Assembly (NCBI GenBank): GCA_028697455.1
Contig: JAQVEZ010000003.1
Span: forward strand, 42,972 to 106,971
Direction of reading: 5' to 3'
Source: Minisyncoccota bacterium
GTDB taxonomy: Bacteria; Patescibacteriota; Minisyncoccia; Phycocordibacterales; UBA1006
Length of the DNA: 64,000 nt
The first letter of the stretch is position 1. The number at the start of each line of letters is the position of its first letter. Of the stretch, positions 11,109 to 57,886 are shown piece by piece. The notes below the pieces were generated by a model, which saw only the letters and a program-made list of their open reading frames with translations, had not been told where the DNA came from and did not search any database. Both the position numbers and the translations under genes were made by a program.

Positions 11109-12428
11109 TTAATTCTCTTGTCCCTGCATTGCAGAAAGGAGTTGTTGATAGAGTCCCAAAAGTTCAGTATAGATATTTACCAAAGGATTGTTATTTATAA
11201 ATCCGTTTTGTGGTCTACAGAAAGTCGTTACTCCCGCTGAACAAAATCGGGTTCCGAAAATGCTTGAGGATTTTGAAGAAGTTGATGACTCTTCAGAGTT
11301 TTTAAAAATAAAGATAGATTGATTATAATAACTACCATTTGCATCCCCGAGAATGACAAACTGTCCATCTGCATAAATAATTTGGGAGGCGTTCATATAA
11401 TCACTTGTACCAAGAGTGGGGATAAGGTACTCCCACACTTCCCCTCCAAAGGAATAAGTGAGGACTTCGTTCCATTCACTGTCCTGCATATAACCAACCC
11501 CGATATAAAGACCGTCTCCATAGGTAATTGATCGTGGGGCAAAAGAAGCATCTCCTGAAACCATTTTTGCTATCCAGTCTGTCCCGTTTTTTGAAGTAAA
11601 AATTTGGTGATCACCTCCAATGATAAACTCCCCATTAAGATACTCCATTTGCCCTCTAAGATGACCTTCTAATCCCTCAATAGTATTAAACCCTGTTGTT
11701 TCATCAGGAATAAACCAATGGGCCCCTCCATCTTGAGAGAGAAGAGGTTCAAAAATAATCGGAGACATCATATCTTCCCGAGTCGAAAGAAGCGATATCA
11801 AAAGAACATCTCCATTTTGGTCATATCCTGCAGCAAGGTGCGAGGATACACCAAGAGGATTATCTTCTACCTCTCCTTTACTCCAGTGCACTCCATCATT
11901 TGAATAAATAATATAGGGTTCTTCTGTTCCTATCATCATATTTCTTTCAATCCCAACCGCCACAAATAATCCTCTGTCGTTAGAAGTATCATACACATAA
12001 GAAACCTTACTTAATTCTCCGTAAGTTTTTGTTATTTCTGGTAATGAGGTTTCAGAGGTATTTTGATCATAAGAATTCCAATTCTCCCCATCACTCGAGG
12101 TATAAACAAGAGGAAGATCATTTGAACGTTTTCCAACAGCAACAAACTTACCATCCCCATAACTAACCCATGACAGATTACCTATTATACCTGTACTTTC
12201 CCAGTTAACAGCATCAGAGGAATAAGCTATCTGACCTCCTCCAACGAGGACATACATTTCATCTCCATAAGCAATAGATGAAAAGGATGATGGCCAAGAA
12301 TCATCAGGAAAAATCAAAGATTCACTCCACTCAACAGGTTGAGCAGAAGCTGTGTGTGGATTAATAAAACTTGTAAAACCTACTATAACAAATAATGATA
12401 GTAGTGACATAAAGGTGTATTTTTTCAT
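11109..12428 (-). CDS. Secreted BNR/Asp-box repeat beta-propeller protein with a conserved two-cysteine C-terminal domain (paralog A)
   Basis: Signal peptide MKKYTFMSLLSLFVIVGF…ASA. Five or more S-x-D-G-x-x-W Asp-box motifs (YSSDAVNWES, TSSDGENWNS, YSNDGVHWSKG, LSQDGGAHWF, TSKNGTDWIAK) alternate with YGDGKFVAVG-type strands. The C-terminus SSIFGTRFCSAGVTTFCRPQNGFINNNPLVNIYTELLGLYQQLLSAMQGQEN is shared with the ORFs at 37368 and 56623. Confidence 0.7.
   Translation of the reverse strand: MKKYTFMSLLSLFVIVGFTSFINPHTASAQPVEWSESLIFPDDSWPSSFSSIAYGDEMYVLVGGGQIAYSSDAVNWESTGIIGNLSWVSYGDGKFVAVGKRSNDLPLVYTSSDGENWNSYDQNTSETSLPEITKTYGELSKVSYVYDTSNDRGLFVAVGIERNMMIGTEEPYIIYSNDGVHWSKGEVEDNPLGVSSHLAAGYDQNGDVLLISLLSTREDMMSPIIFEPLLSQDGGAHWFIPDETTGFNTIEGLEGHLRGQMEYLNGEFIIGGDHQIFTSKNGTDWIAKMVSGDASFAPRSITYGDGLYIGVGYMQDSEWNEVLTYSFGGEVWEYLIPTLGTSDYMNASQIIYADGQFVILGDANGSYYNQSIFIFKNSEESSTSSKSSSIFGTRFCSAGVTTFCRPQNGFINNNPLVNIYTELLGLYQQLLSAMQGQEN
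11122..11275. repeat. Copy 1 of a ~150-bp conserved 3'-end cassette (encodes the shared C-terminal domain) of the BNR paralogs
   Basis: CTGCATTGCAGAAAGGAGTTGTTGATAGAGTCCCAA…GTTCAGTATAGATA… is ~85-90% identical to 37386-37540 and 56637-56790, while the remainder of the genes has diverged. Confidence 0.7.
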
Positions 12429-32890: not shown

Positions 32891-32925
32891 AAATACCTGT
32901 CTCAACGAGACGGGTATTTTTATTT
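32891..32925 (+). terminator. intrinsic terminator (ATACCTGTCTC-AAC-GAGACGGGTAT followed by a T-run)
   Basis: Perfect 11-bp stem directly after the rpmA stop. Confidence 0.8.
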
Positions 32926-33508
32926 ATTTATTTTCTTGAATATTTTTTACAACGCTTTCAATAAAATTGAGAACGTCTCCAATTTCGTTATAAATAATAG
33001 AAATATTTCCTGAGCTTCGATTAAGTCCTAATCGCTCTCGACAAAAAGATGTTACCGTATCACTACAAAAACGAACTCCTGCCAATCGAGTCTGAGAAGG
33101 AAACGCAATTGCTCTCAAGGGAAATGCGTAACAATACCCGGAACAGTCTCCGTCTCCAAAAAGGTCTGGAAGTTTCTCTCCTCCTTTATTAAGGAACCAT
33201 TCGCCCGTGCTGTTCTGAGTATCACCATCGCCTCCTCCGGCTTTTGTTGCCTCACCACGTGTAGTTGTCCCATCACCAGCAGAATCTACGCCTCCTGCAT
33301 AAGCAGAGCCATCCCCCGCACCATTGGTTGCGCTATAAGGAATCCCATCACCAAGCCCCGTATAAAAATCTAGAACATGAGGAAGGCCTGATGAAGAGCT
33401 TGATGTTTGTGCAACAGCTTTGTTTATCTCGGGATTAAAAAGAGTAAAAACCAATACGAAGGCAAGCCCAAAAAGCCCTCCGATAATCATTTTGCTATTT
33501 ATTTTCAT
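32924..33508 (-). CDS. Secreted Gly/Asp-rich protein carrying the same two-cysteine C-terminal domain family as the BNR paralogs (short member)
   Basis: Signal peptide MKINSKMIIGGLFGLAFVLVF. The C-terminus …VRFCSDTVTSFCRERLGLNRSSGNISIIYNEIGDVLNFIESVVKNIQENK aligns with RFCSAGVTTFCRPQNGF…IYTELLGLYQQLLSAMQGQEN. TGGTATAAT lies 7 nt upstream of the ATG. Confidence 0.55.
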   Translation of the reverse strand: MKINSKMIIGGLFGLAFVLVFTLFNPEINKAVAQTSSSSSGLPHVLDFYTGLGDGIPYSATNGAGDGSAYAGGVDSAGDGTTTRGEATKAGGGDGDTQNSTGEWFLNKGGEKLPDLFGDGDCSGYCYAFPLRAIAFPSQTRLAGVRFCSDTVTSFCRERLGLNRSSGNISIIYNEIGDVLNFIESVVKNIQENK

Positions 33509-37367: not shown

Positions 37368-38609
37368 TTATAAGCTGTTTTCACTTTGCATTGCAGAAAG
37401 GAGTTGTTGATAGAGTCCCAAGAGTTCAGTATAGATACTGATCAGAGGATTATTGTTAGTAAATCCATTTTGAGGTCTACAGAAAGTCGTAACGGTTTCA
37501 GAGCAGAAACGAGTTCCGAAGATGCTTGAAGAGCGAGGAAACAAATTTCCATTATCCTTTTGTAATGTTCCAGTCAAGAAAACAGAGCTTGAGCCATCGT
37601 TATAAAGTGGCCCCCCTATAACAACATACTGATCATCTTCATAAAACATAAATATCGGAATAAAATCTAAAAAAGGAAATTCTTCTCGTTCCCAACTCTC
37701 TAAATTATTTGAACTAAAAAGATAATTTGTACTAGTCGCCTCTTCCACGTCAAAAATAGACCCTCCTGTTACATAGAGATTGTTGGTATATGTTACATTC
37801 TTGTGTAAACCAAGTTCTCCGTCTCCAAAAGGAGAACTATGCTCATTCCATGTGATTCCATCTGACGAGATGAATAGATGAGCAGTTTCATCTTCATCCA
37901 TTACACTGAGTATAAAGAGATTATTTGTAGAGTTAAAAGACGTCACTTCTCCTTCTGGAAAAGAAGATGTCCTATCGTCCCACTCAATTCCGTCACTTGA
38001 AGTAAGAACTAAATCATTAGATATAATAACAAACAACTCATTACCATAAAAAACAAAAGCTGCAGAGGCGGGAGCGGACGAAGGGGTTTGTTCAGTCCAT
38101 GTGATTCCGTCACTTGAAGTGTATATCTTTGGTGCTATTACCGGTGAATTTGTTGTAAGAACAAAGAGATCCTTACCATATGCAATAGAAAGAACCGATT
38201 CCTCATCAAGACCAAGGTCTTCTACTTCGTTCCATTGCTTTCCGTCAGGTGAAATGAAAACGCGAGGTGACACCGCTCCCAAGGGTCCCAAGAGTGAGTG
38301 TATACTACCACCAGCCACAAAGGTGTCATTTCCATAAGCGACAGAATTAATAACCCCAAGACCGTCGAGATCTTGCTCAGTCCATTTAATTCCATCTTCG
38401 GAAGTAAGAATAAGCGGAGTAAAGTCTGTCAAATCTTCACCCTTTACTCCTCCAACAGCAACAAAAAGGTTATCTTCATGAATAACAGAAGATACAAGAT
38501 AATTAGAAGGTGTTGGATGAATCTTCCATTCAATCTCCTGTGCGAATAATGTCCCAGCTCCTCCGAAAAGCAAAGCTGAAGCGAGTAATATATATGTATA
38601 CTTTTTCAT
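37368..38609 (-). CDS. Secreted BNR/Asp-box repeat beta-propeller protein with the conserved two-cysteine C-terminal domain (paralog B), driven by a G9-tract promoter
   Basis: Signal peptide MKKYTYILLASALLFGGAGTLFA. Asp-boxes TSEDGIKWTEQ, ISPDGKQWNEV, TSSDGITWTEQ, TSSDGIEWDDR, ISSDGITWNEH. C-terminus SSSIFGTRFCSETVTTFCRPQNGFTNNNPLISIYTELLGLYQQLLSAMQSENSL. Confidence 0.7.
   Translation of the reverse strand: MKKYTYILLASALLFGGAGTLFAQEIEWKIHPTPSNYLVSSVIHEDNLFVAVGGVKGEDLTDFTPLILTSEDGIKWTEQDLDGLGVINSVAYGNDTFVAGGSIHSLLGPLGAVSPRVFISPDGKQWNEVEDLGLDEESVLSIAYGKDLFVLTTNSPVIAPKIYTSSDGITWTEQTPSSAPASAAFVFYGNELFVIISNDLVLTSSDGIEWDDRTSSFPEGEVTSFNSTNNLFILSVMDEDETAHLFISSDGITWNEHSSPFGDGELGLHKNVTYTNNLYVTGGSIFDVEEATSTNYLFSSNNLESWEREEFPFLDFIPIFMFYEDDQYVVIGGPLYNDGSSSVFLTGTLQKDNGNLFPRSSSIFGTRFCSETVTTFCRPQNGFTNNNPLISIYTELLGLYQQLLSAMQSENSL
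37386..37540. repeat. Copy 2 of the conserved 3'-end cassette
   Basis: See 11122-11275. Confidence 0.7.
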
Positions 38610-38617
38610 ACCCCTCT

Positions 38618-38646
38618 ATTATATCTTCTGCCCCCCCCCGAGTCAA
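38618..38646 (-). promoter_or_regulatory. Sigma70-type promoter TTGACT-17 bp-TATAAT with a G9 homopolymer in the spacer (C9 on the plus strand, 38631-38639); the ATG is 8 nt downstream of the -10 box. Candidate phase-variable promoter, ON length.
   Basis: Read directly. The coding strand is AAAAAACTTGACTCGGGGGGGGGCAGAAGATATAATAGAGGGGTATG. Confidence 0.65.
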
Positions 38647-38697
38647 GTTTTTTACAGCAATATAAAAAACACCTTTATAAAAAAGTGTTTTTATAAA

Positions 38698-40737
38698 CTA
38701 GATATCAATACGAACAAGCTTTGCGTTATTCTGAATAAAGAGTTTTCGAGGTTCTACATCTGCTCCCATCAAAGTATCAAAGATAAGATCAGCTTCAACC
38801 GCATCATCGATGGTCACCTGTTTGAGAATTCGAGTTTCTGGATTCATCGTCGTCTCCCAGAGCTCATCAGCGTTCATCTCTCCCAACCCTTTATATCGTT
38901 GAACGTGGATCTTGCTGCTTACTTTTTGCACCACATTCTCTTCTTCTTCCTCACCCGTATCACTTTCTCCCATATCAGTATCAGCAATCGTTGCTCCTAA
39001 CTCTCTGAGAATATCATCTCGCTCTTCATCAGAAAAGGCATACGAAACTGATTTTCCCTTTTTGATTTTGTAGAGTGGGGGTTGCGCAACATAAATATAT
39101 CCTGCCTCAATAAACTCTCGGAAATGACGGAAGAAAAAAGTCATTAATAAAGTTCGAATATGAGATCCATCAACATCCGCGTCGGTTGCGATAACGATTT
39201 TGTGATATCGAGCCTTCTCAATATCAAAGGTTTCTCCAATAGAAGTCCCAAAGGCAACGATCATTGATTTGATTTCATTATTAGCAAGCATCTTGTCCAA
39301 ACGAACTCGCTCAACGTTGAGAGGTTTTCCTCTCAAAGGAAGTATCGCCTGAGTCCTTCGGTCTCGTCCTTGTTTTGCTGTTCCTCCCGCAGAATCTCCC
39401 TCAACAATAAAGATCTCTGCCTCATCAGCATTTTTGGTTTGGCAGTCGGTGAGTTTTCCTGGAAGGGTCAATCCTTCGAGAGCTCCTTTTCGCAAAATAG
39501 AATCCTTTGCTGCTTTTGCTGCCTTACGAGCCTTGAGTGCAAGAATAGCTTTCTTTAAAATATTTTTTGCATCATCAGGATTCTCTTCAAGAAAATCTCC
39601 AAAAGCATCCCCAAACAACGACTCAACGGCTCCACGTGCTTCAGGAGAACCAAGCTTGTCTTTGGTCTGTCCCTCGAACTGAATCTCCTTCATTTTGACT
39701 GAGACCACCACAGAAATTCCTTCGAGAACATCTTCTCCCTGAAGGGCCCCTTCTTTTTCTGGAAGGATTTTATTTTTCTTGTTGTAGTTATTGAGGAGTC
39801 TCGTTAAGGCTGTCTTAAATCCTGTGATATGCATCCCTCCTCCTGGTGTTGGAATGTTATTGGCAAAAGCAACAACACGAGGGGTAATGTCATTAACATA
39901 TTGCAAGGCAACCTCAACTTGAATTCCTTCTTCACTTTCTTTTTCAACATGAAAAATATTTTTATGAACAGGTTTTTGATGAGTATTAAAATAGCGAATC
40001 ATTGAAACAACTCCTCCTTCAAAATAATAGGTCATTGAAGGAACCTCAAGCTGAAGATCTTCAAGATAAATAGCATCAAGAGTATCAAGAGCACCTTCAT
40101 AGTTTCGAGCATCAAGAATGCTTATTCTCAAATTCTTAACAAGGTAAGCTTGTTGTTGATAGTGCTTGATAATCTTCTCCCAATTAAATTCAATTTCATG
40201 GAAAATCTCGCTATCAGGCTGAAAGAGAACAATAGTTCCATTGTGGTCGGTTTTTCCAATTTTTTTAACAGGAGCAGCGATTTTTCCTTGGTGATATTCT
40301 TGGAAATAACGATTTCCATCCTTGTATACGTCAACACGAGTATGTGTTGAAAGAGCGTTCACCACCGAAGCTCCCACCCCGTGAAGCCCTCCAGAAAATT
40401 TATAGTTATCATTATTAAACTTACCTCCAGCATGCAAGGTTGTCATAATAACCTCAAGTGCTGATTTTCCTGTTTTTGGGTGAGTATCAACAGGAATTCC
40501 TCGTCCATTATCAACAACCCGAACATAATTATCAGGGAGAAGAACGATTTCAATATGGTTACAATAACCCGCCATCGCCTCATCTCTTGAGTTGTCAAAA
40601 ATCTCCTTAATAAGATGGTGGAGTCCATCAGGACCCGTTGATCCAATGTACATTCCAGGTCTTTTCCGAACTGGTTCGAGCCCTTCAAGAACGGAAATAT
40701 CACTTGCGGTATAAGCTTTTTTATTTTTTTCTGCCAT
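38698..40737 (-). CDS. gyrB: DNA gyrase subunit B
   Basis: GHKL ATPase …GLHHLIKEIFDNSRDEAMAGYC…, Toprim …EGDSAGG…, and the C-terminal GyrB tail. Confidence 0.9.
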   Translation of the reverse strand: MAEKNKKAYTASDISVLEGLEPVRKRPGMYIGSTGPDGLHHLIKEIFDNSRDEAMAGYCNHIEIVLLPDNYVRVVDNGRGIPVDTHPKTGKSALEVIMTTLHAGGKFNNDNYKFSGGLHGVGASVVNALSTHTRVDVYKDGNRYFQEYHQGKIAAPVKKIGKTDHNGTIVLFQPDSEIFHEIEFNWEKIIKHYQQQAYLVKNLRISILDARNYEGALDTLDAIYLEDLQLEVPSMTYYFEGGVVSMIRYFNTHQKPVHKNIFHVEKESEEGIQVEVALQYVNDITPRVVAFANNIPTPGGGMHITGFKTALTRLLNNYNKKNKILPEKEGALQGEDVLEGISVVVSVKMKEIQFEGQTKDKLGSPEARGAVESLFGDAFGDFLEENPDDAKNILKKAILALKARKAAKAAKDSILRKGALEGLTLPGKLTDCQTKNADEAEIFIVEGDSAGGTAKQGRDRRTQAILPLRGKPLNVERVRLDKMLANNEIKSMIVAFGTSIGETFDIEKARYHKIVIATDADVDGSHIRTLLMTFFFRHFREFIEAGYIYVAQPPLYKIKKGKSVSYAFSDEERDDILRELGATIADTDMGESDTGEEEEENVVQKVSSKIHVQRYKGLGEMNADELWETTMNPETRILKQVTIDDAVEADLIFDTLMGADVEPRKLFIQNNAKLVRIDI

Positions 40738-40808
40738 AGATAGCCCTATTATACCAAAAAAATCTTTATTTTAAAGGCCGAGAAGAAGTATGCTACACTT
40801 AAAAAGTA

Positions 40809-41474
40809 ATGAACTATACCATAGGAAATGATTGGGATATTGAGCTCGAGAGCTATTTTAAAAGCAATATGTGGCAAAAATTGCGTGATTTTGTCACACG
40901 AGAATACCAAGAAAAAGTCATTTTTCCCGAAGAAAAGAACATCTTCCAAGCACTCAAAAAAAGCTCTTTCAAAGAAACCAAAGTCATTATCCTCGGGCAA
41001 GACCCCTATCCTAACAAGGGACAAGCTCACGGACTTGCCTTCTCAGTCCCCAACGGGATCTCCCTTCCTCCTTCTCTCAAAAATATTTTTAAGGAACTCA
41101 AAAACGATCTCGGAGAACAAAGAGAACGAACTGATGGAGACCTTAGTTCTTGGGCAGAACAAGGAGTGCTCCTCCTCAACAGTGTTCTCACAACCGAAGA
41201 GCACAAACCACAAAGCCATGCAGGGCAGGGTTGGGAGGATTTTACCGATACCGTTATCAAAACCCTTTCAAACAAAAAAGACCACTGTGTCTTTATTCTC
41301 TGGGGAAACTCTGCACGAAACAAGAAAAAACTCATTGATACAACCAAGCACTGCGTCCTCGAAGGGTCACACCCATCGCCCTTGTCTGCTTATCGAGGTT
41401 TTTTCAATCAACACTATTTTTCAAAAACAAACAACCATCTCAAGCAAAACAAAAAAACTCCCATACACTGGTAG
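40809..41474 (+). CDS. ung: Uracil-DNA glycosylase (family 1)
   Basis: VIILGQDPYPNKGQAHGLAFSV…, LLLNSVLTTE, and HPSPLSAYRGFF motifs. Confidence 0.92.
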   Translation: MNYTIGNDWDIELESYFKSNMWQKLRDFVTREYQEKVIFPEEKNIFQALKKSSFKETKVIILGQDPYPNKGQAHGLAFSVPNGISLPPSLKNIFKELKNDLGEQRERTDGDLSSWAEQGVLLLNSVLTTEEHKPQSHAGQGWEDFTDTVIKTLSNKKDHCVFILWGNSARNKKKLIDTTKHCVLEGSHPSPLSAYRGFFNQHYFSKTNNHLKQNKKTPIHW

Positions 41475-41478
41475 TTTT

Positions 41479-42183
41479 TTAAATCACTTCTTCTCCTTTG
41501 TTGCTCTTGAGATAGACGTTCCAATAATTTCTCTTGTAGTTTTGTTTTCCCCAGCGCTGGTAGCCTGTCTTTCGTTCCATACGAATGACCTTAAAATAGT
41601 TTCCATAGAGTTTTTTAAAATCAGGACCAGAAAAAACTCGTTCTCGAATTTTTCTAACAGGATGAATATACGTATCTTTTTCTCCCCCAGGAAATTCTTG
41701 TATCATCTTTTGTGCATTCACATCCCCCTCTTTGGCAAGTGTTCGAACGTACAAATACCCATCCTTTTTTAGAACCCGCTGACATTCAGCAAGGTACACC
41801 GTACGTTCCTTTTCATTCAAAGCATTTGAACTCGTAACGTCAAGAATAATATCGACAGAATTATCAGGAAGGTCATAGGGTTCAGCAATATTATGGAGAA
41901 CAAAAGAAATCTGAGGGTGCGCGTGGATCATACGTGCTTGTTCCAAAGCCTCTTCTGAAAAGTCATAGGCATAGACCTTGGCATCATAGTTATCTGCCAT
42001 ATAAAAACTATTTCTTCCAACTCCTGCTCCAAGGTCAAGAACAGAAAGCTTCTGCGTAAAATCAATATTTTTATTTTTTTTAAGCCATTTAACAAAACGA
42101 AAAAAATCTTTTTGTGGTTTGTGTGAGAGGCTTATAAACCTAGGATTTTTATATTCATCATCCCATTGCTCTTGATTGCTCAT
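41479..42183 (-). CDS. Class I SAM-dependent methyltransferase
   Basis: Motif I VLDLGAGVGRNSFYMA…, and an acidic residue in DFSEEAL. Confidence 0.75.
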   Translation of the reverse strand: MSNQEQWDDEYKNPRFISLSHKPQKDFFRFVKWLKKNKNIDFTQKLSVLDLGAGVGRNSFYMADNYDAKVYAYDFSEEALEQARMIHAHPQISFVLHNIAEPYDLPDNSVDIILDVTSSNALNEKERTVYLAECQRVLKKDGYLYVRTLAKEGDVNAQKMIQEFPGGEKDTYIHPVRKIRERVFSGPDFKKLYGNYFKVIRMERKTGYQRWGKQNYKRNYWNVYLKSNKGEEVI

Positions 42184-42265
42184 AGTTCACATTCTAATGA
42201 GAGAACAAAAAAAGTCTATAAAAAAGCCATCCTCATGGGATGGCTCTTGAGAAGGGCCATCCTTC

Positions 42266-42826
42266 TCATTCCTGTTTTTCTTCTTTGAGTTTTTTTTCTT
42301 TTTTCCCACTATCGGCTTTGTCACCTGAGCGTTCGGGCATTGTTCGATAGAAGGACTGGCGTTCCATTTGCTCTGAACGGTCGATCAAATAGCTCCAGCC
42401 ACGGCTGAGCCCCATGAGTTCTGCTCGGGTTTTGCCAGTTTCGTAGCTGACTGAATCCGGGTAGACGATATAGGAGAATAGTAAGTTATCAACGCCCCCA
42501 TATTTACAAAGAACATTAATTTGAGTTATTTCTCCATCTTTGCGGGGGTTTCCTTTGATACTGTCTCTTCTTAGGGTTTGGAACTGATATTTTGATCCAG
42601 TTCGACTGTGAGTAAAGACATACTCATGATCCGAAGGAACCCCTCGTTCCACCGACACCTGCCCTTGGCTCTCGATATACGCTGCAACGCGCTCGTAGTC
42701 ATCAGGAGTTACCACCAACTCAGGTTCTGCTGGCAAATCACCAGGATCGATCCAGGTAATTTGTTTCTTTTTTTCACAAGAAAAAAAGAACAACAAAGAA
42801 AACAGAAACAAACAAATATTTTTCAT
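42266..42826 (-). CDS. putative lipoprotein
   Basis: Signal peptide with a lipobox-like LLFFFSCEKK. Confidence 0.45.
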   Translation of the reverse strand: MKNICLFLFSLLFFFSCEKKKQITWIDPGDLPAEPELVVTPDDYERVAAYIESQGQVSVERGVPSDHEYVFTHSRTGSKYQFQTLRRDSIKGNPRKDGEITQINVLCKYGGVDNLLFSYIVYPDSVSYETGKTRAELMGLSRGWSYLIDRSEQMERQSFYRTMPERSGDKADSGKKEKKLKEEKQE

Positions 42827-42910
42827 TTTAAATGCAATTTTGAGATTAATTATAAGCCTATTATCAAAAATGTCAAAAAATAAAAACCCTTTCGGGTTTA
42901 TATTTCCTTC

Positions 42911-43219
42911 TTATGAAAGAAGCTCTTTTTTCTTTGTTTCAAACTCTTCTTCAGTGATAACCCCCCTCTCTTTTAGTTCAAAGAATTTTTCAAGCTCTGC
43001 AGCGTTGTTGCTTGGAGCTAGGATTTTCTCCCCGTCAAAAAGAGACCACAAGAAAACAAGAACCCAACCAACAGCCGTCCATCCCACAAGAGCATTTGCA
43101 AGGAAAATTACTTCTTTGTTCTTTCTTTTCTTATGAAAAGCAATCATTGTCGGTATAAAGTACACGAACGCAACCACGATAACAAAAAGTATTACAATCA
43201 AAAACGAAAATAGCATCAT
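42911..43219 (-). CDS. Superinfection-immunity-like (Imm_superinfect) membrane protein with a C-terminal SHOCT domain
   Basis: YFIPTMIAFHKKRKNKEVIFLANALVGWTAVGWVLVFLWSL matches the Imm_superinfect signature, and C-terminal ELEKFFELKERGVITEEEFETKKKELL matches SHOCT. Confidence 0.6.
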   Translation of the reverse strand: MMLFSFLIVILFVIVVAFVYFIPTMIAFHKKRKNKEVIFLANALVGWTAVGWVLVFLWSLFDGEKILAPSNNAAELEKFFELKERGVITEEEFETKKKELLS

Positions 43220-43305
43220 AATTTCTATAAATAAAATATCTTTTAATGAATAATGATTTTATTATACTGCATAAACATTTTCTTTCAAAAGAGTATACTA
43301 AAGCT

Positions 43306-44989: not shown

Positions 44990-45532
44990 TTAATTTGAAG
45001 CCTCACAAGGTACTCGTGCATAACTCATGATAGAGAATTCTTTGCTCGTATCAGGGACAAGCTCATCCCCACTTTCAATCAGGGGATAACGGAGTTTTTC
45101 AAGCCCAGTAAGACTTGTTCGATAGATTTCAGCTTCTTTTCCCTCTGATCCTTCAATTATATATGAATAAATGGCATTAATATTCTCTCCCTGTACAGTT
45201 CCCGAGATATTTCCTTGGTATCCATTTGTCATATCAGGGCCACTCTGCGTTCCTGATTTTGTTCCTTTAACTTCGTTCCCAGTAATCGTAATATCCAGAA
45301 ACTCATTCACGGTATAAGGCTCTTCAGGACTTACCTCGTGAGCATACGAGAAACACTGTCTCCCATCAAGGAGAGCAAATTTCGCCTGCTCTTCTCCCCC
45401 TTCTTCTTGATTCTCTTGTATCACCTCATTGTTGGACAGATTCTGTTCTTTTATCTCAGAATTTCTCACAACAACAAAAGCAATCATAAAAACAAAAATC
45501 AAAAACACAAACACATAAAAAGCTTTTTTCAT
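44990..45532 (-). CDS. membrane-anchored or secreted hypothetical protein
   Basis: N-terminal hydrophobic helix AFYVFVFLIFVFMIAFVVV. It shares a ~55-bp promoter/terminator module with paralog A (TGCTATACT 8 nt upstream of the ATG). Confidence 0.45.
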   Translation of the reverse strand: MKKAFYVFVFLIFVFMIAFVVVRNSEIKEQNLSNNEVIQENQEEGGEEQAKFALLDGRQCFSYAHEVSPEEPYTVNEFLDITITGNEVKGTKSGTQSGPDMTNGYQGNISGTVQGENINAIYSYIIEGSEGKEAEIYRTSLTGLEKLRYPLIESGDELVPDTSKEFSIMSYARVPCEASN

Positions 45533-45600
45533 ACCCTTTTAGTATAGCAACCTTAGCTTTAAATTAAAAACCAAAAAACACCTCCCAGTGTCTTTCCTAG

Positions 45601-47056: not shown

Positions 47057-47156
47057 CCTGAGTATAGCACAAAGAAAAAACCTTTGGTATGAGGTTTTTT
47101 GATGATGAGCATCATATAAAATTGCTTTGAGCTCTCGATACCGATATAATAAAAAT

Positions 47157-47483
47157 ATGGAAAACATGTTTAACCCAGATAAATTTAAGAAAGAAACAGC
47201 GGCACCACAACAAGAAGATCTTTATCCAGAAACCATTGCTCTCGAAGATGGAGATGAGATTGTCAGAGTAAGTGTTGGTGATTTATTTCGATGGGATGGC
47301 CCTGTTGAGGAATATCCTCTTTTTAAATTATCAACGATCTACAAAGACCCTGACAATGATTTTTCAACTCATTTTTCCTTTCAGACACAAAAGCCTGACG
47401 GAACATGGGAAGAAGAAAACCAATCACACATGATTAACGAAGAACAATTCAAAAAACTATACCTCAAACACAAAATAGGATAA
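47157..47483 (+). CDS. hypothetical protein
   Basis: ORF followed by a strong terminator at 47488-47522. The start was set at MENMF because TATAAT lies 6 nt upstream. Confidence 0.4.
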   Translation: MENMFNPDKFKKETAAPQQEDLYPETIALEDGDEIVRVSVGDLFRWDGPVEEYPLFKLSTIYKDPDNDFSTHFSFQTQKPDGTWEEENQSHMINEEQFKKLYLKHKIG

Positions 47484-47487
47484 CAGC

Positions 47488-47522
47488 CTAAAACACCCAA
47501 TACTTCGTATTGGGTGTTTAAG
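47488..47522 (+). terminator. intrinsic terminator (AAACACCCAATAC-TTC-GTATTGGGTGTTT)
   Basis: 13-bp perfect stem after the stop of the 47157-47483 ORF. It marks the approximate left edge of the AT-rich island. Confidence 0.75.
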
Positions 47523-47683
47523 ATCATATGCTCCCCTTGTTGGACGCATTCAGAACCCTTAATTGGAATAAGATAGAACAAGAATTAGAATTTAGCGGTA
47601 TTCTAAGTTTCTTTGAAATTAGTTATACTTAAATAGCAGGCTCGCAGGGAGCCACCCCTGAAGGTGGCTGAAAATTAATTAGG

Positions 47684-47794
47684 CGTTGATTTTCGATGTT
47701 CTTTGACGAGTACCTTCTTGCCGTTTTTCAGCGTACGGTAATGTTTACGAACTTCAACAATCTTTTTGCCTTTCTCTGTTTTCGCCATAGAAAG
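47684..47794 (-). CDS. tiny basic protein (36 aa) with weak resemblance to the N-terminal half of ribosomal protein bL33. Divergently transcribed from the 514-aa island gene.
   Basis: Manual translation gives MAKTEKGKKIVEVRKHYRTLKNGKKVLVKEHRKSTPN (compare bL33 MAK…HFYTTTKNKR…). Not in the ORF track. Confidence 0.25.
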
Positions 47795-47821
47795 CTTTAA
47801 GATTAAAGTTTTTAATAAATA

Positions 47822-47862
47822 CTGTCATCGACCTTTGACAGCTAGTTGTCATCTGTCGCAGA
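47822..47862. promoter_or_regulatory. operator-like cluster of TGTCA/TGACA half-sites (CTGTCA-N8-TGACAG plus a direct-repeat TGTCATC) in the divergent promoter region of the island
   Basis: Read directly between the 47794 (-) and 47958 (+) starts. Confidence 0.35.
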
Positions 47863-47957
47863 TTGAAACAATACTTACCTTCCGAAGTGGCTCTCTATGA
47901 GCCTTTTCTTATTTTATACTTATTGAAAATACTTGTAAACTATTGTAAAGTGTAAGA

Positions 47958-49502
47958 ATGAGCGGTTTACATTTTGATATTGAAAACAATTCAAAAAATT
48001 ACCTAGATGAAAAGGAGCTTTTTATGCTTTTCTATTTATTAAAGAATAAGCGTATATCTACATATAGCGGTGTGTTTGTACCTAACCCTAAGCAAGTACT
48101 TATCAAGCCAGATACTACCCCTGAGGATTTATGGGAAAGAATGAATTACAGAGGGCAATCTGTAGTTGTTTTAAATCACTTGTTAAATCTGGGAAAAAAT
48201 TTAGATGAGAAAGGTTTTTCAATATATTGCAACGCTGACTATTCTCTAGTAGAAGGTGGATTTTTAACTGATGATTTTCATAAAGAAATGTACGATTATT
48301 TGAATCTTTCTGAATCTGAACGCAGAAAAGATACTATACTGAATAAAGAACAGAAAGACTTTCTTGAAGAGGTAATTGCAGGAAAACTAGACTTAAAAGA
48401 TATTAATACAAGTGTGCAGTTTACTAAGTTAGCAAACCCTCCCGTTGAATGTTATAGAGAATGTATTTTAAATAAAAAAGCTGATGAAAGATTTATTGAG
48501 TTAATAAATAAGCTTGTTACTAATTATGACGGCGGATTATGGAAAACAGAAGATATAGAAGAATTTTTAAATATCTGGTATCAATCAAATAAAAAACTGG
48601 TAGTAGACAGCGAGCAAGGAATTTTTTATGAAGATAATCAAAAAAAGCTATCTCGTTTAATTTTTGAAAATGTTGAGATTCAATTGGTTTTAAAAGATAC
48701 TCAAAAACTAGAAGAATATTTAAATGACTATCTCAATCTCTATAAAAATGACAAATTAAAAGGATTAAGCAGAACAGGGCTTACTAGAAGTTTCTTTTCT
48801 TCGGGTTATGCGGAAGATATAAATAAAAGCTTTTATGGATACAAAAGACAAAGAGATATTTTAATAAAGCATATTGAAGCTGTTTATAACGAATACCAAA
48901 GAAAAGACTTAGAAATTACAAATCCATACATAGAACCTGAGTATATTGGCGATGAAAAAATCGGTACGGTAAAAATAAAACCAGTTGAAGAAAACAAAGA
49001 AAGAGATTCTTTTCTCTTCGTACATACAATGATAACTCTTGAAAAAGAAATGTATTTAAATATTAATGATTATTCATATGGTACTAAGGAGATGTTTGAT
49101 TTATACGACAGAGGTTTTTTGTTTGAAGTTACTTTAAATTCAATGCCTATTGAAGAAGAAAATAGTAAAGAACCTACAGTACAAAATGATACGGTTTATT
49201 TTGATACTGAGGTTTCAAAGATTTTATGTAATGGGAATGAAATAAAAATAACAAAAGGTAAAGATATTTATTATGCAATTAAGTATCTATTTGAAAGAAA
49301 GGATACTTATGAAGAATGTTTTTATGATGAAATTAGAGATGATTCTGAGTTAAATGACGGCAAAAAAAGGACTGACAAAAATATTTATGATGCCTTAATG
49401 CAATTCAACAAAAGACTTATAAATAAAGGAATTGATGACCTTTTTGTGATTAATTTTCGCTCAATAAAGATAAGAAATAAATACAAGATAGTTACACTAT
49501 AA
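47958..49502 (+). CDS. hypothetical protein, 514 aa, island cargo with no recognisable domain
   Basis: Long ORF at ~30% GC, followed by the terminator hairpin AATCC-TTCG-GGATT plus T-run at 49541-49562. Confidence 0.5.
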   Translation: MSGLHFDIENNSKNYLDEKELFMLFYLLKNKRISTYSGVFVPNPKQVLIKPDTTPEDLWERMNYRGQSVVVLNHLLNLGKNLDEKGFSIYCNADYSLVEGGFLTDDFHKEMYDYLNLSESERRKDTILNKEQKDFLEEVIAGKLDLKDINTSVQFTKLANPPVECYRECILNKKADERFIELINKLVTNYDGGLWKTEDIEEFLNIWYQSNKKLVVDSEQGIFYEDNQKKLSRLIFENVEIQLVLKDTQKLEEYLNDYLNLYKNDKLKGLSRTGLTRSFFSSGYAEDINKSFYGYKRQRDILIKHIEAVYNEYQRKDLEITNPYIEPEYIGDEKIGTVKIKPVEENKERDSFLFVHTMITLEKEMYLNINDYSYGTKEMFDLYDRGFLFEVTLNSMPIEEENSKEPTVQNDTVYFDTEVSKILCNGNEIKITKGKDIYYAIKYLFERKDTYEECFYDEIRDDSELNDGKKRTDKNIYDALMQFNKRLINKGIDDLFVINFRSIKIRNKYKIVTL

Positions 49503-49566
49503 AACACTATAAGTAAAACAAAATAAAGCATTTTATATCCTGAAGTTAATCCTTCGGGATTTTATT

Positions 49567-49731
49567 TATGCAGGAAAATATCAAACAAGAAAATAATCTA
49601 GAAAACCTTGATTTTGAATCAAAGCAAAATCTTGTTGGTTTTTTTGATTTGCTCTTGAAAATTGATATGCGAATCAATCCTGATTTATACAAAGAAGATT
49701 ATCAACCTAAAAAAGAACAAGAAATATGATA
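49567..49731 (+). CDS. small acidic protein (54 aa) translationally coupled (ATGA overlap) to the Rep-like gene
   Basis: Manual translation gives MQENIKQENNLENLDFESKQNLVGFFDLLLKIDMRINPDLYKEDYQPKKEQEI. The stop overlaps the start of the 49726 gene. Confidence 0.3.
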
Positions 49732-50829
49732 GATACAATTATTATCAACATTACTAGAAGCAAGGTAAGAATGCTTTCAGGAGAACGCTGGGATTTAATT
49801 GCGAAAAAGGACTTTTATTCCAAGTTTGCAAGGAACCCCACCAAAAGACAAAAAGAAAGTGATAGATACTACCCTCGTTTGACAGGAGTACAAAGAGCAG
49901 GAAGTGAATCAATCGTAAAGATAGAGTTTTCAATTCCCAAGCTTCTATACTTAAACAATCTTGATGAGCTAGAAGAGAAAGATTTTAAAGAAGTAATTAA
50001 AACACTTCACGAAAGACTGAAAGATATGAGCGTCTTAATATTTGAAAAAGACCTTATCAACGCAGATGTATCTGCAGTTCATTATTCAAAAAACATAGTG
50101 CTAACAAGTGGATATACAGCAAAACATATTATTTCAGAATTGCAGAAAATAAATCTTAATAAACTGAATGATTTAACAAAGACAAGGTTTATGAATAGTG
50201 GAGAAAGTTTACAAGGATATTCAATTTCTAACTCATTTGTCTTTTATGACAAAATATCTGACTTACAAAAAGATGAAAAACGAGCGATAGACAGAGAACA
50301 GAATCCGTATCAAAGGAGTTTATTTAGCTCTTTAAAAGATGAAGAAATACTACGCTTTGAAGTAAGACTTTCACAAAAGAGAAAGTTGAATACTCTATTC
50401 AAGCAATATGGATTCAAAACGAACCCTACATTTCAAGAAGCTTTTTCACTAGATAAAGCTTTAAAAGTGATGACTGAGTATTGGAATGAAAAAATAGATA
50501 AAAACAAATATGTTTTATTTACTTATTCTGAAAACACAGAATCATTACTAAAAAAGATTAGTATTGCACGACCAAAATCACGACCGCAAACATTACTATC
50601 ACTTCTAGGATTAGTATCTTTTGCAAAAGATAATAAAGGCGGATTAAGAGAATTAAGGACAATACTTACTGCACGAATTACTGATAGAGCTTGGTATTCA
50701 ATAGTTAAAAATTTGAAGACTATTTCAAAAGATTTGGAATCATTAAGCGAGCTAGATTGGTATCAGGAAGTTTCAAAACAGATTAAAAATTATAAGCCAT
50801 ACAAGACAAAAAAGTTATCAAAAGCATAG
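49726..50829 (+). CDS. Rep_trans-like rolling-circle replication initiator (pT181 RepC / Tn916-Orf20-like)
   Basis: ESLQGYSISNSFVFYDKISDLQKDEK resembles the RepC block …[22 protein letters not shown], and EILRFEVRLSQKRKL resembles HLWRVEIELKRD. Confidence 0.45.
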   Translation: MIDTIIINITRSKVRMLSGERWDLIAKKDFYSKFARNPTKRQKESDRYYPRLTGVQRAGSESIVKIEFSIPKLLYLNNLDELEEKDFKEVIKTLHERLKDMSVLIFEKDLINADVSAVHYSKNIVLTSGYTAKHIISELQKINLNKLNDLTKTRFMNSGESLQGYSISNSFVFYDKISDLQKDEKRAIDREQNPYQRSLFSSLKDEEILRFEVRLSQKRKLNTLFKQYGFKTNPTFQEAFSLDKALKVMTEYWNEKIDKNKYVLFTYSENTESLLKKISIARPKSRPQTLLSLLGLVSFAKDNKGGLRELRTILTARITDRAWYSIVKNLKTISKDLESLSELDWYQEVSKQIKNYKPYKTKKLSKA

Positions 50830-50870
50830 ATTTGCAATGTAAACTATTGTCAAGTATAATATAAACAATT

Positions 50871-51692
50871 ATGACTAAAGAAATTAAAAATAAACAAGAC
50901 ATTACCCTCTTTGAACAACAAGAAGTCAGAAAAGTATGGCACAAAGAAAAGTGGCATTTTGCAATTATTGATGTTGTAAAAATTCTTACTGATTCTGTAC
51001 AACCTGAAGGGTATATCAAGGATATGAGAAGGCGTGATAAGGAGCTTTCTGAAGGGTGGGGGCAAATTGCCACCCTCCTTTCCATAGATACAAAAGGAGG
51101 TAAACAAAAGATGAATTGTGCTGACTTGGAAGGTATTTTCCGTATTATTCAATCAATTCCCTCTCCAAAAGCAGAACCATTTAAACGCTGGCTCGCAAAA
51201 GTTGGTAAAGAGCGAATTGATGAAATAGCGAATCCTGAATTGGCAGTGAACAGAGCAAAAGAAATTTACGAAAAGAAAGGATATGAAAAAGACTGGATTG
51301 ATAAACGAATGCGAGGTATTGCTGTTAGAAATACTTTAACAGACGAATGGAAAGAAAGAGATATAAAAGGTATTGAATACGGAATCCTGACAAACGAAAT
51401 TTACAAAGGTACTTTTGAACAAGACCATAAATCTTTAATGAAGATAAAAGGTTTGGATAAAAAGAAAGGAGACAATTTACGAGACCATATGGGAGATGTT
51501 GAGCTTATTTTAACAATGCTCGCTGAAGCGACTTCAACAGAAATTACAAAGAGCAAAGACTCAAAAGGAATGAATGAGATAAAGCAGGATGTAAAGAAAG
51601 GAGGACAAATTGCTGGTAATACACGAAAGAAGATTGAAGCTGAGACTGGTAAAAAAGTTATTACTAAAAGTAACCGCAAAGAATTGAAATAA
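50871..51692 (+). CDS. DinD-like / Bro-N domain protein (DNA-damage-inducible protein D family)
   Basis: Bro-N-like N-terminus EVRKVWHKEKWHFAIIDVVKILTD, and a C-terminal block KGLDKKKGDNLRDHMGDVELILTMLAEATSTEITKSKD that matches E. coli DinD KGLKKNQKILDHMGSTELAANLFRATQTEEKLKRD. Confidence 0.6.
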   Translation: MTKEIKNKQDITLFEQQEVRKVWHKEKWHFAIIDVVKILTDSVQPEGYIKDMRRRDKELSEGWGQIATLLSIDTKGGKQKMNCADLEGIFRIIQSIPSPKAEPFKRWLAKVGKERIDEIANPELAVNRAKEIYEKKGYEKDWIDKRMRGIAVRNTLTDEWKERDIKGIEYGILTNEIYKGTFEQDHKSLMKIKGLDKKKGDNLRDHMGDVELILTMLAEATSTEITKSKDSKGMNEIKQDVKKGGQIAGNTRKKIEAETGKKVITKSNRKELK

Positions 51693-51693
51693 T

Positions 51694-51879
51694 ATGAGCA
51701 ACAAACAAGAGAAAGAATTTTACAAATCGGAAGATTTAGCTGAAAAGCTAGATGTAAACATAATGACGATTTATCGTTATATCAAAGCTGGCAGATTGAA
51801 AGCACATAAGATTGGTAAGGAATTTAGAATTGAACAAAAAGAATTTTTGAATTTTCTTAAAAATACAAAAACCAAATAA
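51694..51879 (+). CDS. Excisionase-family HTH (HTH_17 / MerR-like) DNA-binding protein
   Basis: …VNIMTIYRYIKAGRLKAHKIGKEFRI… is the typical Xis/HTH_17 signature; 61 aa. Confidence 0.65.
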   Translation: MSNKQEKEFYKSEDLAEKLDVNIMTIYRYIKAGRLKAHKIGKEFRIEQKEFLNFLKNTKTK

Positions 51880-51884
51880 TCAAT

Positions 51885-52691
51885 ATGAGTAAGACAAAAA
51901 AAACTAAAATAAAGACTAACGTTGTATACAATGAAAGTTGTTTGGAAACTATGGCAAAAATGCCAGATAATTTTGTAGACTTAACTGTCACCTCTCCTCC
52001 TTATGATAATTTGCGGGATTATGGTGGAAACCCTTTTCCTTTTAAGGAGTTTATGTTAATTGCAAAAGAATTACACCGAGTAACTAAAGACGGTGGTATT
52101 GTTGTTTGGGTTGTTGGAGACCAAACCATAAAAGGAAATGAGACGGGAACATCTTTTAAACAAGCACTCTACTTCAAAGAAGTTGGTTTTAAATTGTTCG
52201 ATACAATGATTTACCAAAAGACTCCCAGGGGTGCAGTTGGTAATAATAAAACATATTGGCAAACTTTTGAGTATATGTTTGTTCTTAGTAAAGGAACCCC
52301 GAAAAGTATTAACTTAATTAAGGACAGAGAAAACAAAAGTGCTAGGGATGGAGATAATGGAACCAAGAGACTTAAGGATGGTACTCTGATTAAACAAAAA
52401 AGGAAGGGTTATTCACAATACGGCAGAAGAACTAACGTCTGGGAATATCTAATAGGCAGAGGACATTCTGCAAGTGATAATATTGCGTATGAACATCCAG
52501 CCATATTTCCAGAGAAACTAGCAGAAGACCATATTATTTCCTGGAGCAATAAAGGAGATATCGTTTATGACCCATTTATGGGAAGTGGAACAACAGCAAA
52601 GATGGCAATCATAAATAAAAGAAAATATATTGGAAGTGAGTTATTTAGTGAATATATAGAAATTATAAATAAAAGAATTAAAAATATATGA
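51885..52691 (+). CDS. DNA methyltransferase, N4-cytosine/N6-adenine family (pfam01555-like, beta-class order IV…I)
   Basis: Motif IV TVTSPPYDN near the N-terminus, …HPAIFPEKLAEDHI…, and motif I IVYDPFMGSGTTAKMA near the C-terminus. Confidence 0.8.
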   Translation: MSKTKKTKIKTNVVYNESCLETMAKMPDNFVDLTVTSPPYDNLRDYGGNPFPFKEFMLIAKELHRVTKDGGIVVWVVGDQTIKGNETGTSFKQALYFKEVGFKLFDTMIYQKTPRGAVGNNKTYWQTFEYMFVLSKGTPKSINLIKDRENKSARDGDNGTKRLKDGTLIKQKRKGYSQYGRRTNVWEYLIGRGHSASDNIAYEHPAIFPEKLAEDHIISWSNKGDIVYDPFMGSGTTAKMAIINKRKYIGSELFSEYIEIINKRIKNI

Positions 52692-53146
52692 TTTGTACAG
52701 AGTGTAATAAAAATGAAGCATTAAAGGGTGAATTTTGCGAATCTTGTTTTAATGAAACTAAAATATGCCGTAGGTGTCAAAAGCAGAAAAGTATTTTTGA
52801 ATTTGAAAAAAATCAAAAGAGTATAGCTGGAAAAGTTTCTAGGCGGGGTGAATGTAAAGAATGCAGAAGTTGGAAAAAACCAATAAACCAGAAAGCTCGT
52901 ACTGAATATGAAAAAAATAATCCGCCTACCCCGATAGGAGAATCGTTTACTTGTCCTGTCTGTAAGAAAACTTTTATTCGCCAATTCAAAAATGATGTTG
53001 TATTAGAGCACGACCACAAGACTGGTGAAATAAGGGGGTGGCTTTGCAGAATGTGTAACAATGGTATGGGTATGATGGAAGATGATATTGGAATTTTGGA
53101 ACGAGCAATTAAATGGCTAAAAGGTACATTATCCATATTTCTATAA
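52688..53146 (+). CDS. Endonuclease VII-family HNH (His-Me finger) nuclease, Cys-rich
   Basis: DHDHKTGEIRGWLCRMCNNGMG is the EndoVII/HNH core. There are multiple CxxC pairs, and the start overlaps the MTase stop (ATGA). Confidence 0.65.
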   Translation: MICTECNKNEALKGEFCESCFNETKICRRCQKQKSIFEFEKNQKSIAGKVSRRGECKECRSWKKPINQKARTEYEKNNPPTPIGESFTCPVCKKTFIRQFKNDVVLEHDHKTGEIRGWLCRMCNNGMGMMEDDIGILERAIKWLKGTLSIFL

Positions 53147-53150
53147 AAAT

Positions 53151-54650: not shown

Positions 54651-54710
54651 GATTCGAACCTACGGCCAATCGGTTAACAGCCGATTGCTCTACCGCTGAG
54701 CTACCGGGGA
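54636..54710 (-). tRNA. tRNA-Asn (anticodon GTT), CCA encoded
   Basis: Manual fold gives a 7-bp acceptor TCCCCGG/CCGGGGA, a D-arm GCTC-AGCGGTA-GAGC, an anticodon stem ATCGG/CCGAT with loop CTGTTAA, and a T-arm GTAGG-TTCGAAT-CCTAC. An upstream promoter TTGCAT-17 bp-TATATT sits 8 nt before +1. Confidence 0.85.
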
Positions 54711-56592: not shown

Positions 56593-56622
56593 CTCTCGGT
56601 GTTTTGTGTTCTCTATATAGAT

Positions 56623-57846
56623 TTAGTTCTCTTGCCCCTGCATTGCAGAAAGGAGTTGTTGGTAGAGTCCCAAGAGTTCAGTGTAGATACTGATCAATGG
56701 GTTGTTATTTACAAATCCGTTTTGAGGTCTACAGAAGGTAGTAACTCCGGCAGTACAGAATCGAGTTCCGAAGATGTTTGAGGATGAACCTTTTTGCGGA
56801 GGAAATTCTCCAAGAAGGATTCTGTTATTGTCATCAGATTCAAAAGCTACTGCAACAAATTTATTATCAGCATAAGCAACAGAAATATACCCGTGTTGTG
56901 GGTCGGTATCAACGGTCTCCCAGTTAATCCCATCCTTAGATATAGCAACAGCCTTTCCTGGTTCACTCAAATTATTATCGTAGTCATACGATACCATCAC
57001 AAAGTATCCATTTCCAAAAGCAATATCTTCCCACATTGCCTTGGTGTCAGGAGAAGAATAAGCTGTCCAATTCTTACCATCGCTTGATACAATAATATCT
57101 TGAGCAGCTCCATCATCTTCTGAGATGGCTACGAATTTACCATTTCCATAGGCAACACTGGTCCAAGATCCACCTCCAGCCACTGGTGCTGTAAAGTATT
57201 GCCAGGTTTGTCCTTTGTCTTCGGATACAGCGATGTGTTTTCCATCAGTTGCTGCTTGATTTTTAGACCCAACAACAACGATTTTTCCATCTCCATAAGC
57301 AATACCAGACCAATATTTAGATGCCTCTTCTCCTTTCGCCACCCAGTTTAATCCATCAGTTGAAATGTATATTTGTTTATAAGCACCTTTCCCGCTATAG
57401 CTTCGTGAATAATCAACTGCAACAAAAACATCATCAACAAAAGCGAGGTCTCCTATTTGAATTCCAGAAAAACTCCCCAAAGGAACGCCAGGAACTCCTG
57501 TCCAAGTTTCTCCCCCATCAGTTGATCGATAAAAAACATTACCAGACCAAGCATTTCCAAGAACAAAAGCTCCGTTTCCGTAAGCAATTCCAGTAAACCA
57601 TTGGCTCCCTCCCCAAGTAAATGGGGCTAGTTCCCAATTTTTACCATCTTCTGAGATCATAATACGATTTGTCCCATTTGAAGAAACTGCAACAAATTTC
57701 CCTTCACCATAGGTTACAGCACGCCAAGCATTTTGTGCAGGAGCTTCGATACTTGTCCATTCAATTTCATTTGCATAAGCATCTGTCCCTAAGAATGCAA
57801 GACTTAAAAAAAATATTGATAATAATATAAAATTAATTTTCTTCAT
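56623..57846 (-). CDS. Secreted BNR/Asp-box repeat beta-propeller protein with the conserved two-cysteine C-terminal domain (paralog C), driven by a G10-tract promoter
   Basis: Signal peptide MKKINFILLSIFFLSLAFLGTDAYA. Asp-boxes ISEDGKNWEL, RSTDGGETWTGV, ISTDGLNWVAKG, VSEDKGQTWQYF, VSSDGKNWTAY, ISKDGINWETV. C-terminus SSNIFGTRFCTAGVTTFCRPQNGFVNNNPLISIYTELLGLYQQLLSAMQGQEN. Confidence 0.7.
   Translation of the reverse strand: MKKINFILLSIFFLSLAFLGTDAYANEIEWTSIEAPAQNAWRAVTYGEGKFVAVSSNGTNRIMISEDGKNWELAPFTWGGSQWFTGIAYGNGAFVLGNAWSGNVFYRSTDGGETWTGVPGVPLGSFSGIQIGDLAFVDDVFVAVDYSRSYSGKGAYKQIYISTDGLNWVAKGEEASKYWSGIAYGDGKIVVVGSKNQAATDGKHIAVSEDKGQTWQYFTAPVAGGGSWTSVAYGNGKFVAISEDDGAAQDIIVSSDGKNWTAYSSPDTKAMWEDIAFGNGYFVMVSYDYDNNLSEPGKAVAISKDGINWETVDTDPQHGYISVAYADNKFVAVAFESDDNNRILLGEFPPQKGSSSNIFGTRFCTAGVTTFCRPQNGFVNNNPLISIYTELLGLYQQLLSAMQGQEN
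56637..56790. repeat. Copy 3 of the conserved 3'-end cassette
   Basis: See 11122-11275. Confidence 0.7.
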
Positions 57847-57855
57847 ATATTTTTT

Positions 57856-57886
57856 ATTGTATCATTCTGCCCCCCCCCCGAGTCAA
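57856..57886 (-). promoter_or_regulatory. Duplicated sigma70-type promoter TTGACT-19 bp-TACAAT with a G10 homopolymer in the spacer (C10 on the plus strand, 57870-57879). Candidate phase-variable promoter, apparently at a suboptimal (OFF) spacer length.
   Basis: Read directly. The coding strand is AAAACTTGACTCGGGGGGGGGGCAGAATGATACAATAAAAAATATATG, and the 27-bp core CTGCCCCCCCCC(C)GAGTCAAGTTTTTT is shared with 38628-38652. Confidence 0.6.

Follow-up and report, generated by a model that had tools for sequence, protein, structure and literature searches.

The closest described counterparts of the promoters analysed here are transcriptional switches built on short repeats between the -35 and -10 boxes. 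In porA, a single G lost from or gained by the poly-G promoter spacer alters the transcript level, and in Haemophilus influenzae hifA/hifB the number of TA repeats sets the -35/-10 spacing and hence transcription (PMC3899988); in the mycoplasma genes vlp, maa2 and vmm, it is indels in the spacer that turn transcription ON or OFF (PMC2268961). The mechanism that a sequence-only reading of our locus had credited to Neisseria, Haemophilus and Mycoplasma is on record in all three. The promoter T-tract of M. agalactiae vpma was shown not to switch (PMC2268961), so a homopolymer beside a promoter is no proof of switching.

We analysed a 64-kb stretch of DNA (hereafter the window) that holds two secreted-protein genes, B and C, each with an uninterrupted G run in the spacer of its predicted promoter. 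As in Neisseria meningitidis porA (and opc), the spacer between the -35 and -10 boxes of a putative surface protein gene contains a poly-G or poly-C run of about 9-11; unlike porA, the genes here belong to the Candidate Phyla Radiation (CPR; Pacebacteria), their mRNAs are apparently leaderless, the module is common to several paralogues, and switching is only predicted. The hifA/hifB system differs from our module in its dinucleotide repeat and bidirectional promoter. Mycoplasma hyorhinis vlp (and likewise M. arthritidis maa2 and M. mycoides vmm) resembles our case in belonging to a reduced-genome bacterium. The vlp tract is poly-A, and the vlp 5′ regions are highly conserved between paralogues. 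Both sets of genes are secreted or surface multigene families with one promoter per gene, and in vlp spacer indels turn single genes ON or OFF (PMC2268961). Unlike vlp, the tract here is poly-G in a genome of 37.5% GC, the products are β-propellers with a conserved C-terminal domain rather than repeat-containing lipoproteins, and the genes are single and scattered between housekeeping genes rather than clustered. Most Campylobacter and Helicobacter tracts are intragenic and act by frameshift, unlike the tracts here, which lie strictly in the promoter. Like our bacterium, these genera have small, AT-rich genomes with few long G/C runs, and those few are concentrated in genes for surface structures (PMC8355987, PMC8437040).

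A full-text literature search returned no report of repeat-mediated phase variation in Patescibacteria, Candidate Phyla Radiation, Saccharibacteria or Parcubacteria. The sequence-only reading knew of no description of such variation in reduced-genome, CPR-like bacteria, and we too found no paper linking the two; the mechanism is classical, and we could find no earlier report of it for the CPR. The nearest reported CPR case is the Gracilibacteria PTD-repeat gene with its hypervariable 9-mer repeats (PMC6851277). Hypervariation is local there too, but it affects coding sequence and not promoter strength. Diversity-generating retroelements in the CPR are a further case, again of coding-sequence mutagenesis.

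Promoter anatomy of genes B and C

Gene B (413 aa; 37368..38609, minus strand; PHC89_02285, P0002) lies just 3′ of gyrB, and gene C (407 aa; 56623..57846, minus strand) is flanked by rnc and truB. Read on the minus strand, the region upstream of B is AAAAAAC-TTGACT-c-GGGGGGGGG-cagaaga-TATAAT-agaggggt-ATG: the -35 hexamer TTGACT (38641..38646), with the A-rich AAAAAAC 5′ of it, is followed by a 17-nt spacer containing the G9 tract (38631..38639, C9 on the plus strand) and by the -10 hexamer TATAAT (38618..38623), 8 nt 5′ of the ATG at 38609. Upstream of C the same strand reads AAAAAAC-TTGACT-c-GGGGGGGGGG-cagaatga-TACAAT-aaaaaatat-ATG, with TTGACT at 57881..57886, a G10 tract (57870..57879) in a 19-nt spacer, and the -10 hexamer TACAAT (57856..57861) with an extended -10 TG (TGaTACAAT), 9 nt 5′ of the ATG at 57846. 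Both promoters are therefore as first proposed from the letters alone. A consensus promoter scan scored the B site as an 11/12 sigma-70 match with a 17-nt spacer, and gave no call for the C site because 19 nt is outside its spacer range of 16-18 nt.

Common to B and C is a promoter module of about 30 nt, AAAAAACTTGACTC-Gn-CAGAA, which can be generalised as AAAAAAC-TTGACT-c-Gn-(7-8 nt)-TAtAaT; the TTGACT hexamer is identical in four copies of the module. The earlier description of duplicated promoters driving paralogues holds for this shared module and does not extend to the genes, which are 31% identical overall; the likeness thus appears to be that of a portable promoter module and not of a recent whole-gene duplication. 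A G-quadruplex or hairpin role of the tract was considered and rejected on reading the sequence, where each promoter has a single G run and no C run that could pair with it is close by.

To place the boxes in context, we listed the 45 nt upstream of every large ORF of the window and, for genes with an intergenic gap in front of them, picked out the hexamer most like a -10 box. No Shine-Dalgarno motif was found in any of these 45-nt regions. A TATAAT or TATACT box, often in the form TGnTATAAT, ends 6-11 nt 5′ of the ATG in most operon-first genes (for example gyrB at 38698-40737, truB, the paralogue A described below, and the genes at 4995, 10475, 32924, 43697, 44990, 50871 and 58656), and this Pacebacterium seems as a rule to make leaderless or near-leaderless mRNAs. 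Other promoters of the window carry TTGAxx boxes at 16-18 nt (10475, 32924 and 50871), which suggests that this genome uses a canonical -35 box. The -10 boxes of B and C, 8-9 nt before the ATG, match the genome-wide pattern, which supports their assignment and places the tracts in the spacer, as the sequence-only reading had it; in silico, the length of the tract sets the spacing of the boxes in both promoters. Transcription of B and C is predicted to start at the ATG or 1-2 nt before it. The genome has many extended -10 TGn motifs, among them the one in the promoter of C.

The secreted propeller family

B, C and one more paralogue proved in a profile search to be proteins (locus tags PHC89_) of an NCBI MAG that bears the label Candidatus Pacebacteria bacterium, which agrees with the CPR-like affiliation suggested earlier. 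Both B and C begin with a Sec-type signal peptide by inspection; although 31% identical overall, they are near-identical in their last 55 residues (IFGTRFC..VTTFCRPQNGF.NNNPLISIYTELLGLYQQLLSAMQ), and paralogues of the family are in general 31-38% identical with conserved ends. In the AlphaFold model of B (pLDDT 70), residues 26-349 form a β-propeller, and a disordered linker and a C-terminal helix make up the rest of the picture. Foldseek with this model returned generic propeller matches only (sortilin Vps10, kelch, sialidase; TM 0.3-0.5), while Pfam scores fell below the cut-off for BNR_2 (20.7 vs 31.4) and Sortilin-Vps10 (25 vs 33) and marginally above it, in B alone, for DUF6242 (30.3 vs 29). 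Of the original description as secreted BNR-propeller genes, the signal peptide and the propeller fold stand and the BNR assignment does not; judged from the model and the Pfam scores, the label 'secreted β-propeller' is justified and the label 'BNR sialidase' is not.

The 55-aa C-terminal domain contains two Cys and a predicted helix, and is encoded at 37368-37535 (B), 56623-56790 (C), 11109-11270 and 32930-33103. Its DNA is 83-86% identical between paralogues that are otherwise not alignable. The third copy belongs to paralogue A (439 aa; 11109..12428, minus strand) and the fourth, a divergent version, to a 194-aa secreted protein (32924..33508, minus strand), both located by tblastn and both behind tract-free promoters: paralogue A has a type-2 promoter, TTGCAT...TGgTATACT-agaagagt-ATG, at 12429-12480, and the 194-aa gene has TGgTATAAT 7 nt before its ATG. 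The MAG as a whole encodes at least six full-length paralogues, a 78-aa fragment and the divergent 194-aa member.

An exhaustive search with the C-terminal domain matched 18 of 1.84 billion cluster representatives at E<=0.001 (12 of them at <=1e-10), and a word-indexed search with the 55 residues added one fragment only (P0121); the family is therefore lineage-restricted, to the level of a genus. NCBIfam and Pfam held no model and no named sorting signal for the domain. Exact-protein look-ups for B, C and the MAG paralogues P0006, P0008 and P0009 found nothing on record, family-profile scans of genome, metagenome and viral contig collections found no relatives, exact-motif scans (AACTTGACTCGGGGGG N0-8 CAGAA) of genome and metagenome contigs gave 0 matches, and a scan of viral contigs with a 17-mer of the module gave 0 matches, indicating that none of these three contig collections contains the lineage.

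The family also turns over between strains. Strains with an identical RNase III protein diverge right after the rnc stop codon: gene C is a single-gene cassette of about 1.34 kb (~56607-57948) with its own terminator and promoter, present in the window and in a second assembly of the same population (L007, below), whereas in one related contig (L005, 3700-3760) rnc runs straight into the truB terminator and promoter with the cassette absent, and in another (L006, 2445-2520) unrelated genes take its place. The edges of the cassette are similar terminator hairpins, AAAACAC...GTGTTTTTT, which could mediate its gain and loss by recombination. At a further locus, two strains (L002:3001-4212 vs L003:3001-4179) share the 5′ end with promoter and signal peptide and the 3′ end with the C-terminal domain, and differ in the propeller body, a mosaic replacement within the family. 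The presence or absence of C and this exchange of propeller bodies point to a family under rapid diversification, the usual context of contingency genes. The target genes are secreted and strain-variable, and probably surface-exposed; with their signal peptide, divergent propeller body, near-identical C-terminus and strain turnover, they look like contingency genes.

Two other features of the window are recorded here. A plus-strand gene block (~47100-54710) has at its end a gene for a large serine recombinase (53151-54650), which overlaps the adjoining tRNA-Asn (54636-54710), and the related contig L005 has an identical tRNA-Asn with different neighbours; the block is possibly an integrated element, and between 40 and 54 kb no att-like copy of the tRNA-Asn end of at least 12 nt was found. 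A 933-aa protein (1165-3966) has weak matches to the TrwB/TraG-type coupling protein and HerA-like ATPase families and is possibly part of a conjugation or DNA translocation machinery.

Long G runs and module copies in related strains

Among the longer G and C runs of the window (37.5% GC), seven have a length of 6, lengths 7 and 8 do not occur, and lengths 9 and 10 occur once each, so that the G9 of B and the G10 of C are the only ones longer than 6 in 64 kb. Under a first-order Markov model, 0.087 runs of at least 9 are expected per window (maximum 2 in 300 simulations), and about 1.8 runs of at least 7 are expected vs zero observed runs of 7-8; the 24-nt module core gave 0 matches in 100 shuffles. 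The tracts at B and C are real and not due to chance. Tandem Repeats Finder reported no other notable repeats. The survey took in the window plus related contigs totalling 44 kb, some 14 kb of them a re-assembly of the window, and over this DNA long G runs are confined to the module: each G/C run of at least 7 sits at one and the same position in it, namely the G9 and G10 of the window, a G11 in the contig L003 and a run of at least G10 in L004, with the two window sites re-assembled in L007 and L008. All of these (G9, G10, G11 and at least G10) are uninterrupted repeats of slippage-prone length (a G/C run of about 8 or more).

Nine loci were obtained from Logan assemblies by protein-based look-ups; the SRR accessions of the runs, when searched for in the literature, gave no match. 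Two of them come from SRR22315504: L008 is 100% identical to window positions 37392-43237 and carries G9, and L007 has one mismatch in 3,832 nt relative to the window (99.97%) and carries G10. Evidently these represent the population of the window, assembled independently; since they repeat both G9 and G10, the tract lengths of the window are not assembly errors, and both assemblies run unbroken through both tracts. Compared at the level of assemblies within this one population, the window and L007/L008 showed no length heterogeneity at a single locus.

Other strains carry further versions of the module. In L003 (SRR31966184), a C-like gene 3′ of a PBP1A gene is preceded by AAAAAAC-TTGACT-c-G11-taaggtga-TATACT-aaaagggat-ATG, with a spacer of 20 nt and an extended -10 TGn. 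The same locus in L002 (SRR21722015), with flanks 95-98% identical, reads TTGCTC-AAGAGAAGGGCGAGGTGA-TATACT, with an 18-nt spacer; its tract is an interrupted purine run, broken into AAGAGAAGGG, resembling the locked variants of known systems. In L004 (SRR21722009), the contig with a B-like gene starts with exactly ten G, followed by caggacga-TATACT-agaaaggt-ATG, for a spacer of at least 19 nt. A contig end at the 5′ edge of the tract is what a de Bruijn branch point with mixed tract lengths would be expected to produce, and a drop in coverage would give it as well, so we take it as suggestive only.

The sole second-strain B locus is L001 (SRR31966184), look-ups with the flanking gyrB and RNase J-like genes having otherwise returned the same population (SRR22315504) only. 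It is a gyrB-B-RNase J locus with 87% nucleotide identity, whose B orthologue (74% amino-acid identity) has the tract-free module GGTTTTCATTCAAAGCTAAAGTTGG before the same -10/ATG region. Within the window, this type-2 tract-free module also stands before paralogue A and before the gene at 44990-45532. As terminator plus promoter, GGTGTTTTTTGGTTTTCATTCAAAGCTAAGGTTGGTATACTAGAAGGGT-ATG, it is repeated at window positions 12429-12480 and 45533-45585 and at L001:440-499, and behind it come, respectively, paralogue A, a gene for an unrelated membrane or secreted protein of 180 aa, and the other strain's B orthologue.

Among the copies of the G-tract module, the flanks AAAAAACTTGACTC and the -10 region are conserved while the length of the tract varies (9, 10, 11 and at least 10), and the differences seen lie between paralogues or between strains 82-96% identical. 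The earlier claim that tract length is not fixed is thus borne out among copies, with the reservation that the G9 vs G10 comparison on which it rested is between paralogous loci, and that the replicate of each locus is identical.

A candidate promoter switch and its alternatives

We lean, with a little more than even confidence, towards reading the G runs as a plausible transcriptional contingency switch of the porA or Mycoplasma vlp type, in which slippage alters the -35/-10 spacing. The G9-G11 runs would be hypermutable homopolymers built into a portable sigma-70-type module that drives individual secreted-propeller genes, and slipped-strand mispairing would add or remove a G and so shift the spacing, reversibly and at high frequency. 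For gene B, G9 would give the optimal 17 nt and predicts an ON state, whereas the G10 of gene C (19 nt) and the G11 of L003 (20 nt) predict genes that are weak or OFF, each of which would reach 17 nt with G8; L004 (at least 19 nt) would be out of phase together with C and L003, which fits a pattern of one gene ON and the others down. Each paralogue would be turned up or down stochastically and independently of the others. Because the mRNAs are apparently leaderless, transcription initiation would be the main control point. The link between tract length and expression is the predicted effect of 17-nt as against 19-20-nt spacers.

The observed length differences all separate paralogous loci or distant strains and could reflect slow drift. 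The promoter might then be fixed, the G run being a non-switching quirk of a recombining module whose length drifts slowly, with expression set mainly by the -10 or extended -10; we regard this as unlikely, if far from negligible. Such a quirk would sit well with the identical same-locus replicates (G9 and G10) and with the tract-free promoters of other family members, and a promoter tract that does not switch has a precedent (PMC2268961). It also gains from the TGn motifs, common in the genome and present in both C and L003. In known sigma-70 promoters an extended -10 lessens dependence on the -35 box, so that in C and the G11 copy the -35 spacing can matter less, and graded volume control would be likelier there than clean ON/OFF switching. 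However, neutral runs of G9-G11 should decay by substitution, as the run in L002 has, yet uninterrupted runs are kept at at least four loci across strains 82-87% identical, with no other long G/C run in about 100 kb, and a change from 17 to 19-20 nt is expected to matter where the -35 box is consensus. To our knowledge, G runs of at least 9 are slippage-prone in all bacteria studied, so some length variation would be unavoidable. The perfect TTGACT of the out-of-phase copies is what would be expected if phase were intermittently restored, and its conservation, together with the uninterrupted runs across strains 82-87% identical, argues for selection on the tract.

That the run instead serves as a regulator-binding or DNA-structure element (e.g. 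a rigid spacer), or as a recombination signal at the boundary of an exchangeable promoter or cassette, strikes us as improbable. The -35 box plus tract is indeed the exact piece exchanged between the window and L001 before a shared -10 region, and the family genes act as single-gene cassettes inserted between housekeeping genes; however, lengths of 9, 10 and 11 are more variation than a specific binding site should accept, the cassette edges map to terminator-like repeats and not to the tract, and no recombinase adjoins B or C, the nearest being the serine recombinase at 53151-54650 in a separate block.

Still less probable, in our judgement, is a mis-assigned promoter, with gyrB and rnc read-through or an unrecognised promoter driving the genes and the tract lying outside any spacer. 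The hexamers are consensus matches only, which leaves room for this; against it, the intergenic regions at B and C are 88 and 102 nt long and mostly taken up by the strong terminator-like hairpins of gyrB and rnc directly 5′ of the modules, which leave no space for another promoter at either gene. The gyrB hairpin with its T-run (approximately 38664..38692, minus strand), read by eye from the sequence and not called by a simple terminator scan, leaves about 55 nt for any gene B promoter. The 8-9 nt from -10 box to ATG recur, moreover, in many other promoters of the window, and Rfam found no RNA family in these intergenic regions, its only match elsewhere in the window being tRNA-Asn. A sequencing or assembly artefact is the least credible account, for although homopolymers are error-prone and one Logan contig (L004) ends at the tract, G9 and G10 are identical to the base in the NCBI MAG and in Logan SRR22315504, two independent assemblies, the module recurs with G11 or at least G10 in two other runs, and the tracts are internal, short and flanked by conserved sequence.

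If the switch reading holds, B, C and their relatives may be the first repeat-based phase-variable gene set in the Candidate Phyla Radiation, with a -35 plus poly-G module exchanged among genus-restricted propeller cassettes and giving stochastic, combinatorial surface expression in an ultra-small, probably host-attached bacterium; we advance this wider reading tentatively, at somewhat less than even confidence. On this reading, the apparently leaderless mRNAs would make promoter spacing almost the sole available control point. CPR/Patescibacteria are thought to be host-attached and to have few recognisable regulators, and their surface variation is known mainly from diversification of coding sequence. 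If true, a slippage-driven promoter switch would add bet-hedging to the CPR repertoire of surface variation, and would indicate the secreted propellers as an interface with hosts or phages.
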